Source: Candidatus Kerfeldbacteria bacterium (GTDB taxonomy: Bacteria > Patescibacteriota > Patescibacteriia > SBBC01 > CAIJZX01). From it: a DNA stretch of 64,000 bases. Shown here piece by piece: positions 5,024-63,267 of the stretch. Numbering within the stretch: the stretch's first letter is position 1; the number at the start of each line of letters is the position of its first letter. Below the pieces are notes generated by a model. The model was not told the DNA's origin and searched no databases. It worked only from the letters and a program-made list of their open reading frames with translations. The stretch covers positions 756,257 to 820,256 of the forward strand of contig CAVSWO010000002.1 of the NCBI GenBank assembly GCA_963731735.1, read 5' to 3'. The position numbers and the translations under genes are program-made.

Positions 5024-6841
5024 ATGGAACGCCGCAAGGATATCAGAAACATCGCCATTATTGCTCACGTTGACCACGGCAAAACAACCCTGGTAGACGC
5101 GATGCTCAAGCAGACCCAAGCCGCGCGCAATTTAGACGATATGGGCGAGCGAATTTTGGATTCGATGGATCAGGAACGAGAACGGGGGATTACCATCCGG
5201 GCCAAGAACGCCTCGGTCGTCTATCATGCCATCAAAATAAATATCATCGATACGCCGGGCCACGCGGACTTCGGCGGCGAAGTCGAACGGACGCTGCGAA
5301 TGGCCGACGGGGTCCTGTTGCTGGTGGACGCCAAGGAAGGGCCGATGCCACAAACGAAATTCGTGACCCGCAAGGCGCTGGAACTCGGCTTGAAAGCGAT
5401 TGTGGTGGTCAACAAAATCGACAAAGCGGATGCCGATCCGGACGAAGCGGTCAATAAAACCTTTGACCTATTCGGCACCCTGAATGCCACGCATGAGCAG
5501 CTCGATTTCCCGATCGTGTACGCCTCGGCGATTGCCGGAACCGCCACCCTGGATCTGACCAAACCCGGCACGGACTTACAACCGCTGTTTGAAACGATAT
5601 TGCAGCACATTCCGGGCCCGGAGATTCGGTCGAATGATCCGCTGCAATTACTGGTCTTGGCCCTGGCCAATGATAACTACAAAGGCACGCTCGGGATCGG
5701 AAAAATTTTAGCCGGCAAGATCCGCAAAGGGCAGCCGGTGGCGCGGGTCAAACGCGACGGCACGATTGACCGCAGCAAGGTGACCGATATTTTGGTTTAT
5801 CAGGGCTTAGCGCAAACGGCGGTGGAGGAAGCCGAAGCCGGTGAAATCGTGGCGGTGGCCGGGATCGAAAAAATTGCGATTGGGGAGACGATCGCGGACG
5901 CCGAACAGCCGGTGGCCATACCGCCGGTTGACGTCGATCAACCGACCGTCCAAATGACCTTCGGCGTCAACACCTCGCCGTTCTCCGGCCAGGACGGGAA
6001 ACTGGTGACCTCGCGCCAGATTCGCGAACGCTTGATGAAAGAACTGGAAACGAATGTGGCGCTGCGGGTGGCCGAAACCGACAATGACAACAGCTTCCTG
6101 GTGTCGGGTCGGGGGGAATTGCACCTGGCGGTCCTGATTGAACAAATGCGCCGGGAAGGTTTTGAATTGCAGGTTTCCCAGCCGCAGGTGATTTTGCATG
6201 AAGCCAACGGCCAAAAGTTGGAGCCGTATGAACTGGTTACGATTGACGTGCCGGCCAACTATCAGGGAGCGGTGATTGAGGAGTGCGGCCGACGCAAGGG
6301 CGAACTGCTCTCGATGGACACGACCCCCAGCGGCGATCTGCATCTCGAGTACGACATGCCGACCCGCGGGGTGATTGGATTAAAGTCGGCTTTGATGACC
6401 AAGTGCCGCGGCACGGCGGTGGTCAACCACCTATTCAACAAATACGAACCTTACGCGCCGGAACTGATCGACGCCAACAGCCACGGTTCGCTGATCGCCT
6501 TTGAGCACGGCAAGAGTACCGGTTACGCCCTGGACACCGCCCAACAGCGCGGCACGTTATTTATCGGCCCGGGCGTCGATGTCTATGCCGGGATGGTGGT
6601 CGGGCAAAGTGGTCGGGATGAAGACATTGAAATCAACGTGGCCAAGGAAAAGAAGCTTTCAAACATGCGTTCCAAGGCCTCTGATGCCGCGATTCTGCTG
6701 GCTCCGCCGCGGCAGATGACGCTCGAACTGGCGCTCGAGTATATCGGGAGCGACGAACTGGTGGAAGTCACGCCGCGATCGATCCGGATCCGGAAACAAA
6801 TCCTCGATTCGAACGAGCGCAAACGGACGGGGAAAACGTAA
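5024..6841 (+). CDS. typA: translational GTPase TypA/BipA
   Basis: MERRKDIRNIAIIAHVDHGKTTLVD..DTPGHADFGGEVER..NKIDK. The ORF is open from 4943, but the homologous start is M at 5024. Confidence 0.9.
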   Translation: MERRKDIRNIAIIAHVDHGKTTLVDAMLKQTQAARNLDDMGERILDSMDQERERGITIRAKNASVVYHAIKINIIDTPGHADFGGEVERTLRMADGVLLLVDAKEGPMPQTKFVTRKALELGLKAIVVVNKIDKADADPDEAVNKTFDLFGTLNATHEQLDFPIVYASAIAGTATLDLTKPGTDLQPLFETILQHIPGPEIRSNDPLQLLVLALANDNYKGTLGIGKILAGKIRKGQPVARVKRDGTIDRSKVTDILVYQGLAQTAVEEAEAGEIVAVAGIEKIAIGETIADAEQPVAIPPVDVDQPTVQMTFGVNTSPFSGQDGKLVTSRQIRERLMKELETNVALRVAETDNDNSFLVSGRGELHLAVLIEQMRREGFELQVSQPQVILHEANGQKLEPYELVTIDVPANYQGAVIEECGRRKGELLSMDTTPSGDLHLEYDMPTRGVIGLKSALMTKCRGTAVVNHLFNKYEPYAPELIDANSHGSLIAFEHGKSTGYALDTAQQRGTLFIGPGVDVYAGMVVGQSGRDEDIEINVAKEKKLSNMRSKASDAAILLAPPRQMTLELALEYIGSDELVEVTPRSIRIRKQILDSNERKRTGKT

Positions 6842-58083: not shown

Positions 58084-58235
58084 AGAACACCTCCAAGTTC
58101 AGAGAAAATAGCGGAACAGTTTCGGGTCGACGCTAACAGAAATTACGGGAAATGTCAATCAAACGCAAATTGACCCGCGGGTTTGAATCTTAGTTCTTGG
58201 GCAGGCTGTTGAGTTTGTTGTATACTCTAGAAGTT

Positions 58236-59111
58236 ATGTTTGATGCACCCACAAATCTCCCATCCTCACAAAACTTGAACCCCGGATCGCGCCGGCCGAA
58301 GCCTGTGGTAGTTATTGCGGCCATCGTCGGGGTGTTGATTGCGGCCGGGGCCATCTATTACGGCCTGGTGTATTTTCGCGCCAAATCCATTTTGACGGAT
58401 AACACGGCGCTAAACCAAGCGATTACAAATATCGAGGTAGCCGCTGATCAGATCGATCTTCAGGCCGTTGATCAAGGGAATGACCAGGCGGTCAAACAGC
58501 TTGCCGAAGTATACTCGACTGATAGCGAAACGGTGCGAACGGCCGTTCAATTTACCCACATCGCGTATCTTTATGCAGTACTGAATGACTACTCCGGACT
58601 TTACGGCGCCTATCCGACAACGCTTGATGCACTGGTGGCGAGCTGGCAGGATATCGTTGACGCCTGTCGGATCCAGCCCGGTTGTCACATTAAGAACATC
58701 ACCAAGCAAACCGCCACGGATTTCGTCTATGACGTCTTTACCCAAGCGCCGTATGTCTATGAACTCCAGGCACCGAGCTATACGCTTACATACCGCATGG
58801 GCCATTGCAAAGACCAGCAACTTTGCGATGACGGTCAGGGCTATTACCGCAATGGCATCAATACCATGTCCGCCGAAGACATTTCACTTGAGCAAAAACA
58901 CGCGAGTGACGCAGCCGGAGGTGCCAACACGAGTACCCTGATTCCACTCGACCGTGATACCGACGGTGATGGACTGACCGATGTTGAAGAACTGTACGTC
59001 TATAAAACAGATAGTACGAAAACCGATACCGACGGTGATGGTTTTACCGACGGCCAAGAGGTGTCGAATGGTTACGACCCGAACGGACCGGGTCAACTCC
59101 CGAATAGGTAG
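58236..59111 (+). CDS. membrane-anchored protein with C-terminal TSP3-like Ca-binding Asp repeats
   Basis: TM helix VVVIAAIVGVLIAAGAIYYGLVYF; DTDGDGLTDVEE and DTDGDGFTDGQE repeats. Confidence 0.55.
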   Translation: MFDAPTNLPSSQNLNPGSRRPKPVVVIAAIVGVLIAAGAIYYGLVYFRAKSILTDNTALNQAITNIEVAADQIDLQAVDQGNDQAVKQLAEVYSTDSETVRTAVQFTHIAYLYAVLNDYSGLYGAYPTTLDALVASWQDIVDACRIQPGCHIKNITKQTATDFVYDVFTQAPYVYELQAPSYTLTYRMGHCKDQQLCDDGQGYYRNGINTMSAEDISLEQKHASDAAGGANTSTLIPLDRDTDGDGLTDVEELYVYKTDSTKTDTDGDGFTDGQEVSNGYDPNGPGQLPNR

Positions 59112-59179
59112 CGTTTTCCCTCAAAGGGGAGTAGGGGGTACTTGCCATCACCCACCCCGTGGTGTAGAATCCTACTAGA

Positions 59180-59389
59180 ACAACTGAATACGTTATCAAG
59201 AGTGCAGCGAGGGAACGAGCCCGATGCCTGTCCGCCGAAGAATCGGCGCAGGCGGAACCTGCCAGCAACCCTTGTTACGGACCTGATCCGGAAACCAAGA
59301 AGGTGCTAATTCTCGCCCCAAATCGGGGAAAGATACTTCGCGCAACCTCTTTCCTTGACTGGGAAGAGTTCTTTCACATGGAGGAAGCA
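59180..59389 (+). promoter_or_regulatory. conserved structured 5' leader, copy 1 (candidate riboswitch / cis-regulatory RNA)
   Basis: The -10 TAGAAT is at 59167-72. A ~95-nt block matches copy 2 at 95/97 nt. It is followed by GGAAAGA, CTCTTTCC and GGAAGAG alternative pairings, TTCTTTC, and the RBS. Confidence 0.5.
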
Positions 59390-59797
59390 ATGACGAACCG
59401 AGAAAAGTTGCAAGACATGACAGTCGTGTGTTTTCCGAAGAAGCTGGTGGTGGACGGTCGGCCGGAGCTGTCGGTCTTTCCGCTCCAGGTCGCTTTTATG
59501 GCGGTAGCGGAACGCGACGGCCAGGTGACGGCCCGGGCGTCGTCGTACGTCCCGGAACTGGCCACCTACGCGCTCGACGGATCGAAGCGCAGCCTGTACT
59601 ACGACAACGTCCTCGGCGGGGATTCTGCGCTGCGGATTACCTTTGAAACGATCGGGGGGACGTATGTCGGCGAAAAAGTATTGGCTGGGCACTGCGTCGC
59701 TCAGGCAACCGGCCGAGACTGGAACGAGTTCTTCGTTCAGCTCTCCGGGGTCGGCGTTGTCGATGGCGAGCGGTGTGAATTGCACCGCTTCGGTTAG
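59390..59797 (+). CDS. hypothetical small protein (paralog A)
   Basis: GGAGGA RBS; MTNREKLQDMTVVCFPKKL...; ~55% identical to the 62375 gene. Confidence 0.55.
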   Translation: MTNREKLQDMTVVCFPKKLVVDGRPELSVFPLQVAFMAVAERDGQVTARASSYVPELATYALDGSKRSLYYDNVLGGDSALRITFETIGGTYVGEKVLAGHCVAQATGRDWNEFFVQLSGVGVVDGERCELHRFG

Positions 59798-59882
59798 CCC
59801 CCACCTCAACCCGGCCGTCCCGATGTGTAGCTATCGGGACGGCCTCTTTTCTTTTCCCCGAAAACTATCGTACACTCTCTCT

Positions 59883-60551
59883 ATGTGTGGCGCATTCTCC
59901 ATTCGCATCAACCCCTCGATGGCCGATTTCCTCCAGGATGTCCAAGCCATCAAACCCTGGGAACCGATCTATAACGCTCGACCCGGCGAATGGTTGCCGA
60001 TGGTGACCGAAACCAAACCACACAAACTCACCTCCGCCTACTGGGGTTTTGTACCGCACTGGATGGATCCGAAACAGGGGAGTCCGGTCATCAACGCCCG
60101 GGGTGAAACGGTCATGACCAAACCGTATTTTCGGAAAGCCTTTGCCGGACAGCGCTGTATTATTCCGGCCGACGGATTTTACGAATGGGAAAAAAATGGC
60201 CGTCTGCGCTTACCACACTATTTCCGCCGACGCGATGACCAGCCCTTCGCCTTTGCCGGACTCTACGACGCCCTCCCAAAGACTCCGACGAAATTTGGCT
60301 TCGCGATTATTACGACCACGCCGAACACAATGGTCGGAAAAATTCACGACCGGATGCCGGCGATGTTACCGGATGAGGCGGTGGCTGCCTGGCTCAATCC
60401 CGATACCGCGCCCGAGCATGCCGCCGAGCTGATCCAACCGTACCCTGACCGGGCGATGGTGTCGTATCCGGTCTCCCGGGCGGTTAACTCCGCGAAGCAT
60501 AAAGGCGCTGACGTGATTGAACCGTTTCAGGAGACGGGAAAGTTGGTATAA
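59883..60551 (+). CDS. SOS-response-associated peptidase (SRAP/YedK) abasic-site processing protein
   Basis: The N-terminal MCGAFS catalytic Cys2 and the family length (~220 aa) fit. Confidence 0.8.
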   Translation: MCGAFSIRINPSMADFLQDVQAIKPWEPIYNARPGEWLPMVTETKPHKLTSAYWGFVPHWMDPKQGSPVINARGETVMTKPYFRKAFAGQRCIIPADGFYEWEKNGRLRLPHYFRRRDDQPFAFAGLYDALPKTPTKFGFAIITTTPNTMVGKIHDRMPAMLPDEAVAAWLNPDTAPEHAAELIQPYPDRAMVSYPVSRAVNSAKHKGADVIEPFQETGKLV

Positions 60552-60739
60552 TTGTTTAATAGAATTGCTGTCCCGCCATACAGGTAACCTGGGATTACAG
60601 TGGCACAGGCAGTGTTGGTGATTCACATCCAGCCGGCCGTTTCTCCCTCTCGACACTCTCGAGACGAGACGGCCGGTTTTCTTATTATAAAAAAGCCCAT
60701 CGTATACAACCGATGGGCAGATGGTGCGATCCGAGGCGA

Positions 60740-61843
60740 CTACGCTTCGGCGGCCTCGGACAGGTCTCCCGAATCGTTGTCACTCTCGTCGAAGTTCACG
60801 AGGGCGCCCAATCGCGGCGTCAGGCGCCGCGTACGCTTCCCACTGTTGATGTGGTCGCGCATCAAGATGTACAGCATCTCGTGAGCCTTGCCCGCGGAGG
60901 AGGCCAGCCGCACGATCTCCGGATCGTTGATCTTGAACAGGCCGATCTTCCGACGCAGGCTGGCGTCGACGAACAGTCGCCGATCATCGTCCTTGGTCCA
61001 GAAGTCGAGATGGTCACAGAGCAGCTTGGCCATCACGAACAGGAAGGTGCCCCGCATGTAGATGGCCGACTCCCTGAACTGGATTCGACGGATGCCCCAA
61101 CACTCGTCGAGCAGGTCGAAGAACGTCCGGATGTTCTCTCGGAAGATATTGACGCCGAAAACGTTGATCGCCCGGTCGAGCGACGGCACGAGTTCCTGCG
61201 TCCGGCTGCTCCGGCCACCGGGAGCCCGGTGAGACATCAGGCGTCCGGCCACCTTGGTCAGCATGGTGGCGGTGATGAACTCACCGCGCGTCATGCGCTG
61301 GTTCCAGCACACCCGGCCTTTCAGGACGAATCTCTCATCCCGCGTAGACAGGGAGTACAGCGCCTGGATCGCCGGACTGTTCTCCCGCATGTTGCGCAGA
61401 ATGACATTCGACGACACCTTCAAGCGGCTGGTGTTGGTGGCCAGGAAACGCTCGCGTTCCCAGGCCTTGGTGGTCCCGAAGTGGATCATCGCGCCGAGGC
61501 GCAACGGCTTGTCCGGGTTGGACCGCAGGAAGTGGATGGCCGCGTTGACACGCTGCTGGCCGTCGACGATGTACACGGGATCCTTGAGGATGAAGACGCC
61601 CTCTCGCTCGGTCACGGAGTGGCCGCGCATCCCCAACTCGACGTCCGGGAAAACGACCTCGTCGGCCAGTGCTTCGAGCATCGAACTGAGGCTCGTGACC
61701 GGCAGCGCTTCGCGCTGGTACTCGTCGACCATCAGGTCTTGGAGGGACCGTGGATCGATGGATCCGCGGACGATGATGTCGCCCTTGAAGTCGTCGAGGC
61801 CGCCGTTCAGAATCCGGATGGGCTTCTGCGTCTGCTTGGTCAT
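60740..61843 (-). CDS. DndB-like / DUF262 (ParB-like nuclease domain) protein
   Basis: DGQQR signature (YIVDGQQRVNAAIHFL). The 367-aa length fits the DndB/DpdB family and there is no DUF1524 half. Confidence 0.65.
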   Translation of the reverse strand: MTKQTQKPIRILNGGLDDFKGDIIVRGSIDPRSLQDLMVDEYQREALPVTSLSSMLEALADEVVFPDVELGMRGHSVTEREGVFILKDPVYIVDGQQRVNAAIHFLRSNPDKPLRLGAMIHFGTTKAWERERFLATNTSRLKVSSNVILRNMRENSPAIQALYSLSTRDERFVLKGRVCWNQRMTRGEFITATMLTKVAGRLMSHRAPGGRSSRTQELVPSLDRAINVFGVNIFRENIRTFFDLLDECWGIRRIQFRESAIYMRGTFLFVMAKLLCDHLDFWTKDDDRRLFVDASLRRKIGLFKINDPEIVRLASSAGKAHEMLYILMRDHINSGKRTRRLTPRLGALVNFDESDNDSGDLSEAAEA

Positions 61844-62181
61844 GTCTGCTCCTTAGGGTGGGCAGATGTCAGAGAACGTCCCGAAGCAGTACCCAAAGTA
61901 GGGCCTTATGTTCGGGGCTTGCCTGGATGGCAATGCTCGCTGTTCTTACCTGATACTCGGCATTTTGTCAAGCCGTATATATCGGCTTGCTAATCTTACC
62001 TCGTCATCACGGTGATCCGGAGCGAAATTTATTTGCCCATTTTCTTAACATCAGAAATTTCGATATAAGATCATTGATGTCCGTTTTTCGGACATCGGTG
62101 GTTTTCCGGATTGCTTGAAAAAAAGTCAAAGCTTAGCAGCGCCTTGCGCGTCCTTAGCCGGTGCGCTACAATCCGAAGTGG

Positions 62182-62374
62182 ACAACTGAATACGTTATCA
62201 AGAGTGCAGCGAGGGAACGAGCCCGATGCCTGTCCGCCGAAGAATCGGCGCAGGCGGAACCTGCCGGCAACCTGCCAAATTGGTAAGGTGCTCCATCTCG
62301 CCCCATTCCGGGGAAAGATACTGCACGCATCTCTTTCCTTGAGTGGGAAGAGTTCTTTCACATGGGAGGAAAAC
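62182..62374 (+). promoter_or_regulatory. conserved structured 5' leader, copy 2
   Basis: The -10 TACAAT is at 62168-73. Same leader block and alternative hairpins as copy 1. Confidence 0.5.
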
Positions 62375-62782
62375 ATGTCACACCACGACCAGCGTCCCGA
62401 CGTCAACGTTGTCTGCTTTCCGAAGAAGCTGCAGATCCCGGACCGGCCGGAACTGTCGGTCTTCCCGCTGCAGGTCGCCTTCATGGCCGTGGCGGAACGC
62501 GATGGCCAGCTAGGGGCGATCTGCTCGTCCTACGTCCCGGTCCTGCCGACCTACGCGGTCGCTGGCTCGCAGCGCTACCTTCGCTACGAGAACATCCTGG
62601 GCGCCTCGTCGCTCCTGCATCTCACCTTTGACGATGTGGGTGTCCGGTACGTCGGCGAGAAAGTCGTTGACGGACGCTCGATCGGCCGGGCTTACGGGCG
62701 CGACTGGGAGAGGTTCTTCACCCATCTCGCCGCCCTCGGCATTGCCGAAGATGAGCGGCATGAATTTCGTGGGATAGGGTAG
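62375..62782 (+). CDS. hypothetical small protein (paralog A')
   Basis: GGGAGGA RBS; MSHHDQRPDVNVVCFPKKL... Confidence 0.55.
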   Translation: MSHHDQRPDVNVVCFPKKLQIPDRPELSVFPLQVAFMAVAERDGQLGAICSSYVPVLPTYAVAGSQRYLRYENILGASSLLHLTFDDVGVRYVGEKVVDGRSIGRAYGRDWERFFTHLAALGIAEDERHEFRGIG

Positions 62783-62791
62783 AGTTCATAT

Positions 62792-62826
62792 CCTTCCCGC
62801 CCCCACACCAAGATTTGGTGTGGGGG
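62792..62826 (+). repeat. two-hairpin repeat element, partial copy 3
   Basis: CCTTCCCGCCCCCACACCAAGATTTGGTGTGGGGG followed by a T-run. Confidence 0.65.
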
Positions 62827-62892
62827 CTTGACTTTTTTCCAAATTCATGTATACTGCCCGGTTCCAAAACCCAAAACACGGAGGTTCCTTCC

Positions 62893-63267
62893 ATGAACGT
62901 TACCCTCGAGCCGAAAACGACGCTCGGGTTCCCGACGCAGTTCACGACGCGATCCGAAGTCAAGTTTTCACCCGGCCTGTCCTTCACAGACCATCAGACC
63001 GAAACTAAGCGGACGGAGTGCCATGAAGTGCTTAAGGACATGCTCCAACAGATCACCGGATTGCCGGTCGCCGGGCGGCTGACCTTCACAGTGACGAAGA
63101 AACACATCCAATCATCAGGGCGTCTGTCCGTCTACTTCGGTCAGCAGCAACGTTGCTCGGATCGCATCCGGCAGATGATGCAAGCGCTTGACGACTATCG
63201 GCGACGATTCCCTGATCGGGTTACGTCAACCGTTTTCGAGGTTCAGGTCAGAATCGAGTTTGCCTGA
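62893..63267 (+). CDS. hypothetical protein
   Basis: GGAGG 8 nt upstream of ATG; 124 aa. Confidence 0.45.
   Translation: MNVTLEPKTTLGFPTQFTTRSEVKFSPGLSFTDHQTETKRTECHEVLKDMLQQITGLPVAGRLTFTVTKKHIQSSGRLSVYFGQQQRCSDRIRQMMQALDDYRRRFPDRVTSTVFEVQVRIEFA

Follow-up and report, generated by a model that had tools for sequence, protein, structure and literature searches.

What does the leader shared by two paralogous small-protein genes of a Patescibacteria-type genome sense, if it senses anything at all? The two genes, called A and B here, encode proteins of 135 amino acids (aa) each and lie in a stretch of 64,000 nt (contig CAVSWO010000002.1), which we call the window and which was analysed as a whole. 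An earlier note, made from the sequence alone, had read the leaders as riboswitches with alternative terminator and antiterminator structures, and had assigned them to no known class. Our analysis keeps the riboswitch and its terminator/antiterminator platform, and replaces the class: the leaders are almost certainly derived from the S-box or SAM-I riboswitches (Rfam family RF00162), whose ligand is S-adenosylmethionine (SAM). What sets them apart is a 30-nt insertion in the kink turn (K-turn) of helix P2. Both leaders carry this insertion, and we think it fairly probable that they still sense SAM and act by transcription attenuation.

SAM-I homology of the two leaders

No family was reported when the whole 64-kb window was scanned at the Rfam gathering thresholds. 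In a permissive scan of 59100-59420, RF00162 aligned at full length (model positions 1-108) with copy A at 33.4 bits (E = 5.8e-6). Copy B, scanned separately, aligned over the same model positions at 28.3 bits (E = 1.6e-4). The gathering score of this family (clan CL00012) is 44.4 bits. The scores of the window copies are low because of the 30-nt insertion, by which 48 nt are found in P2 where the model expects 17, and because of the long P3 of copy A. A covariance model of the subfamily (R1) aligned as a whole at 65.2 bits with copy A and 61.0 bits with copy B, and found only these two sites in the window. SAM-I was absent from the classes that the earlier note had compared by eye, namely ZTP, ykkC, mini-ykkC, fluoride, glycine and c-di-GMP, before it stated that none fits, a statement overturned by the end-to-end alignment of both copies. 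Two other weak matches of the permissive scan, mir-2818 and a manganese riboswitch (E about 6), were rejected as chance.

The aptamers lie on the forward strand at 59190-59338 (A) and 62192-62324 (B), the latter with the same architecture and a shorter P3. Both have the four-way junction of helices P1 to P4 that is known from SAM-I riboswitches such as those of yitJ and metI in Bacillus subtilis and metF in Thermoanaerobacter tengcongensis, and the junction is supported by covariation. In copy A the strands of P1 are 59190-59197 (5') and 59332-59338 (3'), and the joining segment J1/2 (AAGA) follows at 59198-59201. P2 is divided into P2a (5' strand 59202-59207) and P2b (GGG 59211-59213 with CCC 59220-59222), with the K-turn between them. 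The K-turn has CGA (59208-59210) as its non-bulged strand, its loop GAU together with G1b occupies 59223-59226, and A2b and C3b stand with the 3' strand of P2a at 59257-59263, positions 1b and 2b being named after the Lilley nomenclature. P3 is at 59264-59307 and P4 at 59316-59328. The P2 terminal loop forms a pseudoknot with J3/4, through CGAG (59216-59219) and CUCG (59312-59315) in the window and through CUAG and CUAG in most relatives. The hairpins that the earlier note had listed are all present, i.e. GGG/CCC, CGCCGA-AGAA-UCGGCG and GCAGG-CGGAA-CCUGC.

The hallmark segments UUAUCAAGAG, GAGGGA...CCCGAUG, RGCAACC, GGUGCU and GAAAGAU are all in the alignment, and UAUCAAGAG, RGCAACC, GGUGCU and GAAAGAU are unchanged in both window copies. 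The nucleotides that line the pocket (AAGAG of J1/2, GCAACC and GGUGC of P3, and GAAAGAU of J4/1-P1) are unchanged as well; in the published T. tengcongensis structure, the J1/2, P3 and J4/1-P1 segments reportedly contact SAM. The window further has a C.C pair beside the G.A pairs of the K-turn, at a position that varies from G-A to C-C in SAM-I (Barrick and Breaker, PMC2258182).

Relatives of the two genes carry the same kind of leader. A search of 5.8 billion sequences gave just three close relatives of proteins A and B. Two of these are preceded, in a metagenome-assembled genome (MAG) of Candidatus Kerfeldbacteria (L001) and in an activated-sludge contig (L002/L003), by the same leader, which matches the window base for base from ACAACUGAAUACGUUAUC on, save the insert. 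Outside the insert, the 5' block is the same in all four leaders. These insert-free leaders score 56.3 bits (L001, aptamer at 5860-5962) and 51.1 bits (L002/L003) with RF00162. A protein-profile scan of representative genomes gave six distant loci with 28-39% protein identity, in Wolfebacteria, Saccharibacteria, another Patescibacteria MAG, Gastranaerophilales and two MAGs labelled Gammaproteobacteria, and a SAM-I aptamer is encoded upstream on the same strand in each (53.5-67.1 bits). Four further loci were picked through the protein alone; all four have the aptamer and three of them pass the Rfam cut-off. Overall, 11 of the 12 distinct homolog loci pass the RF00162 gathering score (48.9-67.1 bits), i.e. 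all but L072.

The predicted helices are maintained among these relatives. In an alignment of 15 diverse relatives, made by MAFFT and not fitted to the model, 91.0% of the cells are paired compared with at most 50% in slid controls, and 15 pairs have changed on both sides. The pseudoknot is paired in 100% of the cells of this alignment, with compensatory changes in three of its four pairs (CUAG:CUAG, CGAG:CUCG, UUGG:CCAA). For 64 distinct sequences the corresponding value is 91.9%, with 16 of 30 pairs changed on both sides and slid controls at 52% or less; this alignment was fitted to the subfamily covariance model and so leans towards structure. Across genomes, and with the insert removed, the leader is 76-93% identical, compared with 60-80% for the coding sequences and about 40% for the upstream DNA. 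These figures bear out the earlier note where it stated that selection acts on the RNA, and they point to purifying selection on the leader.

Within the window, 59180-59270 and 62182-62272 match at 90 of 91 positions, the sole mismatch being A59264 vs G62266. The earlier count of 95 in 97 described a real block and made it slightly too long, as the identity ends at 59270/62272 where P3 begins; the 84-nt string quoted with it is indeed the same in copies A and B. In the P3 region only 12 of 39 positions are identical because the copies differ in length by 17 nt. The 3' part of the leaders is alike again (73 of 88 positions, or 83% over the last ~88 nt), and the whole leaders with the 30-nt insert taken out reach 77% identity. 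For the coding sequences the DNA identity is 66.7%, with 51% at third codon positions and 74-75% at first and second positions, a pattern that suggests coding sequence under purifying selection. The proteins are 56% identical (55.6%), where the earlier note had given "about half". The 100 nt upstream and the 100 nt downstream of the two units are ~39% identical, and therefore the shared block is not part of a longer segmental duplication, an objection that the earlier note had raised against itself. A motif search with TTATCAAGAGNNNNNNGAGGGA found exactly two sites in 64 kb, those in leaders A and B, where 0.01 would be expected by chance.

Terminator and antiterminator alternatives

Each aptamer is followed by an intrinsic terminator on the forward strand. 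In leader A it occupies 59347-59377 (hairpin 59347-59368, CUCUUUCC-UUGACU-GGGAAGAG) and in leader B 62331-62361 (hairpin 62331-62352, CUCUUUCC-UUGAGU-GGGAAGAG); both hairpins have 8 bp and -10.3 kcal/mol, and the U-rich UUCUUUCAC follows. The dual pairing of CUCUUUCC that had been claimed, either with the upstream GGAAAGA or with the downstream GGGAAGAG, is present. The predicted antiterminator of leader A (59323-59358, forward strand) consists of 11 bp between UCGGGGAAAGA (59323-59333) and UCUUUCCUUGA (59348-59358), with -11.9 kcal/mol in a constrained fold in which the 3' strand of the terminator is unavailable. In leader B it consists of 9 bp between GGGGAAAGA (about 62311-62319) and UCUUUCCUU. 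UCGGGGAAAGA runs from the 3' strand of P4 through J4/1 into the first part of the P1 3' strand, and UCUUUCCUUGA is made of the terminator 5' strand and loop. Both leaders have in common with SAM-I riboswitches that the P1 3' strand is shared between aptamer and antiterminator and that an intrinsic terminator comes next.

When the terminator 3' strand was withheld, as it is during transcription, the best fold paired UCGGGGAAAGA with UCUUUCCUUGA. When the J4/1-P1 strand was withheld, as in the ligand-closed aptamer, P4 and the terminator formed. These constrained folds support the mutually exclusive layout proposed in the earlier note, and the alternatives appear to fit the classical S-box logic, in which bound SAM leads to termination.

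We propose that each gene forms a unit of its own with a promoter, the riboswitch leader and a terminator, and that this unit is controlled by transcription attenuation. SAM would bind the four-way-junction aptamer and lock P1 and P4, by which GGGGAAAGAU is sequestered. CUCUUUCC would then be free for GGGAAGAG, and the terminator hairpin with its U-rich tail would halt transcription before the ribosome-binding site. At low SAM the antiterminator would form and the gene would be transcribed, so that the switch would be OFF when its ligand is present. Attenuation is plausible here because strong intrinsic terminators end both genes (59813-59844 after gene A, 62799-62827 after gene B).

The remaining parts of the units are also on the forward strand. 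Unit A has a promoter-like site at 59142-59170 (TTGCCA, 17-nt spacer, TAGAAT) with 10 of 12 consensus matches. The conserved block begins 10 nt 3' of this site, and transcription probably starts near 59178-59181. In L001 and L002 there is a -10-like hexamer directly 5' of ACAACUGAAU. A possible promoter of unit B at 62144-62172 (TTGCGC, 17-nt spacer, TACAAT) was picked by eye; it has a weak -35 and is not in the promoter scan. The Shine-Dalgarno sequence GGAGGA (59380-59385) and gene A, with its ATG at 59390 and its stop ending at 59797, span 59380-59797, and the paralogous gene B is at 62375-62782.

A 30-nt insertion in the P2 K-turn

The insertion CCUGUCCGCCGAAGAAUCGGCGCAGGCGGA splits the GA step of the P2 K-turn on its 3' (bulged) strand, so that it stands between G1b and A2b. 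It is found at 59227-59256 in copy A and, with the same sequence and position, at 62229-62258 in copy B, both on the forward strand. Its placement is unambiguous, as CCCGAUG runs directly into ACCUGCC in the insert-free leaders of L001 and L002. An exact search of the window returned only these two sites, and the insert is not a repeated element of the window beyond the two leaders. Metagenomes were scanned with lengths of 1-31 nt allowed at the insert site; this gave 58 relatives, each with 1 nt there, and no second example of the insert. A strict canonical K-turn, with [C/U]GA (3 nt) opposite NNNGAC (6 nt), is present in 68 of the 71 related aptamers that were aligned; the exceptions, which have a helix there, are the window copies and L072. 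Length variation in the subfamily concentrates in the loops of P3 and P4, unlike the rigid K-turn. About 67 nt are inserted in the P3 loop of an aptamer (L056:2072-2248) upstream of a Cys/Met gene of the pyridoxal phosphate (PLP) type, and another aptamer (L027:1055-1187) has an extended P4.

How could a SAM-I aptamer accommodate such an insertion? The insert holds one copy of each P2a strand, flanking the CGCCGA-AGAA-UCGGCG hairpin, and it can form the hairpin GCCUG-UC-CGCCGA(AGAA)UCGGCG-CAGGC, by which the kink becomes a three-way junction. When P2 is folded by itself, the three-way junction of P2a, P2b and the insert hairpin is what results. The best reading in our view is that the insert folds as its own hairpin, that the kink would be supplied by the three-way junction, and that the RNA would still sense SAM. 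We regard it as probable, though far from assured, that the window leaders are functional SAM sensors.

The published work on SAM-I leaves room for this. The K-turn is conserved in the class (PMC2258182). The kink docks the P2 loop, and a pk-turn in place of the K-turn keeps SAM binding (PMC4316175, PMC3672288). The engineered exchange and the window have in common that a kink in P2 is needed and a canonical K-turn not necessarily. The difference is that a known motif was swapped in by design there (PMC3672288), whereas the window has a natural insertion with a predicted fold. A third helix at the K-turn that makes a three-way junction inside an aptamer is also known from the k-junction of the thiamine pyrophosphate (TPP) riboswitches of Arabidopsis and E. 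coli (PMC4005666, PMC10573300). The k-junction is defined by an extra helix that interrupts the non-bulged strand (PMC10573300, PMC4316175). In the window the bulged strand is the one interrupted, between 1b and 2b (GAU-G and A-C-CUGC), and the variant is therefore not a k-junction in the defined sense.

A closer analogue of the k-junction is probably the aptamer L072:3754-3932, upstream of homolog P0171. It has a hairpin UCGCGU(12-nt loop)ACGCGA on the non-bulged (5') strand of the P2 K-turn, CCU-GAU-AA-U on the 3' strand, and a 32-nt insertion in P4. It scores 52.4 bits with R1 and is under the Rfam gathering score. Its helix at the K-turn appears to be independent of the window insertion.

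The most serious competitor is that the insertion has disabled two former SAM-I riboswitches. The K-turn would be destroyed, the P2 loop could not reach J3/4, and neither the pseudoknot nor SAM binding would follow. P1 and P4 would then not be locked, so that the antiterminator would form by default and both genes would be constitutive, or else a misfold would make the terminator form always; gene conversion would have spread the lesion to the second copy. We hold this to be a real possibility, though the less probable one, and several observations weigh against functional sensors and partly in its favour. The strands of exactly 3 nt and 6 nt and the invariant GA in 68 of 71 relatives indicate a strong constraint, and the G1b-A2b step that is invariant in those relatives is parted in the window. 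A standard simple K-turn (3-nt bulge followed by G.A and A.G) is absent there, with 30 nt between G1b and A2b; the sequence after the insert reads G-G-A-A-C, and the canonical G.A/A.G register is not restored without an extra nucleotide. With P1, P2b, P3 and P4 enforced, nearest-neighbour energies give -44.1 kcal/mol for the three-way junction and -45.7 kcal/mol for a competitor. In the former GCAG (59204-59207) is paired with CUGC (59259-59262); in the latter it is paired with the proximal CUGU (59228-59231), and two additional hairpins stand between P2 and P3. This tandem-hairpin fold would break the junction, and its advantage of 1.6 kcal/mol does not decide between the two. The minimum-free-energy fold of the whole aptamer did not recover the SAM-I fold, and its z-score of -1.6 is uninformative. 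Both copies are under the RF00162 gathering score, and P1 is weak in both, with a bulge and a mismatch. A helix on the bulged strand has no structural precedent. As the insert is identical in both copies and not found elsewhere, it offers no covariation; its absence from all other sequences of the metagenome scan fits a recent event private to one lineage.

Other observations speak against a disabled switch. The other conserved SAM-I positions, the CGAG/CUCG pseudoknot and the terminator/antiterminator alternatives are intact in both copies, which is a weak argument if the event was recent. An insert that forms a hairpin leaves P2a and P2b able to form, a kink other than a K-turn supports SAM binding in engineered SAM-I (PMC4316175), and in L072 another natural aptamer has a helix at its K-turn. 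That one and the same insert became fixed in both paralogous leaders is also easier to understand if it is tolerated or useful.

The history of the copies bears on a further explanation, in which the identity of the leaders comes from recent duplication or gene conversion only and the RNA has no function. Protein B shares 72.6% identity with P0002, the Kerfeldbacteria protein whose leader is insert-free, and only 55.6% with protein A; hence the A/B duplication is older than the split from the insert-free lineage. An old duplication with an identical insert in both leaders requires gene conversion of at least the insert, unless two separate, exact losses of the insert are assumed, which is improbable. 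Most likely there was a single insertion event, after which gene conversion carried the insert over to the other leader, and the identity of these 30 nt would be better explained in this way than by long-term purifying selection. Extending the same cause to the whole leader seems very improbable: without the insert the leader is kept in other genomes at a higher identity than the coding sequences and the upstream DNA, its helices show compensatory changes, and the flanks of the two copies are unrelated. The new riboswitch class proposed in the earlier note, with a novel aptamer and another ligand, could draw on the lack of any Rfam family at the gathering score in the window, and has practically no probability left, being refuted by the RF00162 alignments of the window copies, end to end and with all hallmarks, and of the insert-free orthologous leaders, which pass the cut-off at 49-67 bits, the shortfall of the window copies being explained by one 30-nt insertion and a long P3.

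To find SAM-I is in itself ordinary, as this riboswitch class is among the best known. What matters more is that annotation by thresholds can overlook true SAM-I riboswitches on account of a single insertion; at the gathering score, L072 is missed as well as both window copies. Such natural aptamers, in which a helix interrupts a K-turn that is otherwise invariant, on the bulged strand in the window and on the non-bulged strand in L072, also probe what the kink requires.

The downstream protein family and its surroundings

The window differs from the SAM-I riboswitches studied so far in its host, a Patescibacteria-type genome with Kerfeldbacteria as the closest relative and a contig of 823 kb, and in the gene under control, which belongs to an unannotated 135-aa family and is not a recognised methionine, cysteine or SAM gene. 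In the full-text literature we found no paper on SAM riboswitches in Patescibacteria. A profile search collected 237 clusters of the family at 50% identity (E <= 0.001). Wherever a cluster has a source name, this reads hypothetical, and the named clusters are from Patescibacteria. Proteins A and B have no match in Pfam, NCBIfam, PADLOC or PHROGs, and a weak Pfam search with 58 family members gave no consistent match. There is no sequence match for the family in PDB, and no fold match either. The AlphaFold (AF2) model built from the 58-sequence alignment is confident, with a predicted local distance difference test score (pLDDT) of 93.6, and shows a beta-meander with two helices; with 5 sequences only a poor model (pLDDT 63) was obtained. 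Fusions to TPR repeats, a DSP-type phosphatase or a CpXC domain occur in some members and give no clear functional direction. In a MAG labelled Gammaproteobacteria, the family domain forms the C-terminal part of a longer open reading frame (ORF; L007:1914-2723, up to 269 aa). This frame overlaps the aptamer, and its true start is probably further downstream; the spacing between aptamer and gene is longer there, about 250 nt.

The association of the family with the riboswitch is consistent. In each of the 12 distinct homolog loci for which there was DNA, the family gene has a SAM-I aptamer upstream. In one of them metK intervenes: the order in the Wolfebacteria locus (L005) is riboswitch, metK, family gene, with one riboswitch. 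The same aptamer subtype probably controls metK in related genomes; in metagenomes it precedes metK at 16 loci and this family at 9 loci. It also precedes Cys/Met PLP enzymes and a SAM hydroxide adenosyltransferase-like gene. From the linkage across the homolog loci we predict that the family is part of a SAM-starvation regulon, and by association the 135-aa protein probably acts in SAM or methionine homeostasis. The riboswitch would thereby tie a protein family without an assigned function to a ligand.

The subtype is also found before three more small-protein families without a Pfam match, each as the first ORF after the aptamer (L013, L018 and L021, each with its cluster). One has proteins of 95 aa (6 loci); the other two are rich in cysteine, with 109 aa (5 loci) and 88 aa (2 loci). 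Patescibacteria may accordingly have a larger number of small SAM-regulated proteins that lack annotation, and together with the 135-aa family these are predicted to be on when SAM is low. Such genes offer a handle on the SAM and methionine economy of ultrasmall, host-dependent bacteria, whose regulation is almost unstudied. At L020 the first ORF after the SAM-I aptamer is an IS200-like Y1 transposase (PF01797, E = 3.1e-29), which has probably inserted between the riboswitch and its original gene.

A more ambitious reading joins the insertion and the family. The insert helix would form a bulged-strand three-way junction not described before, which supplies the kink of a working SAM-I riboswitch with a new P2 architecture and has its k-junction-type counterpart in L072; the 135-aa family would be induced by SAM starvation and serve SAM/methionine homeostasis or the response to a lack of SAM, and it would be confined to Patescibacteria and a few other lineages. 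We offer this combination tentatively and consider it unlikely to hold in full.

Family homologs at L070, L071 and L072 are near DNA methyltransferases and an HpaII-type restriction-modification (R-M) system, which may be a coincidence. A role in defence or immunity, to which the fusions and the neighbours of DGQHR and R-M type could point, is speculation.

Four other genes lie around the two units in the window. After gene B there is a 124-aa ORF (62893-63267, forward strand) with its own promoter-like site (TTGACT-16-TATACT, 62828-62855) and no match in Pfam, NCBIfam, PADLOC or PHROGs. Between the two units, on the reverse strand, 60740-61843 encodes a 367-aa protein with a weak signature of the DGQHR / DpdB / GmrSD_N-like (ParB-type) kind (TIGR03187, E = 1.2e-6, below the cut-off). 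Just upstream of leader A, the 304-aa protein of 58197-59111 (forward strand) has a hydrophobic segment at its N-terminus and, towards its C-terminus, bacterial TSP3 (thrombospondin type 3-like, calcium-binding) repeats. Directly 3' of the gene A terminator, 59883-60551 (forward strand) encodes an SOS-response-associated peptidase (SRAP, PF02586, E = 3.6e-61).

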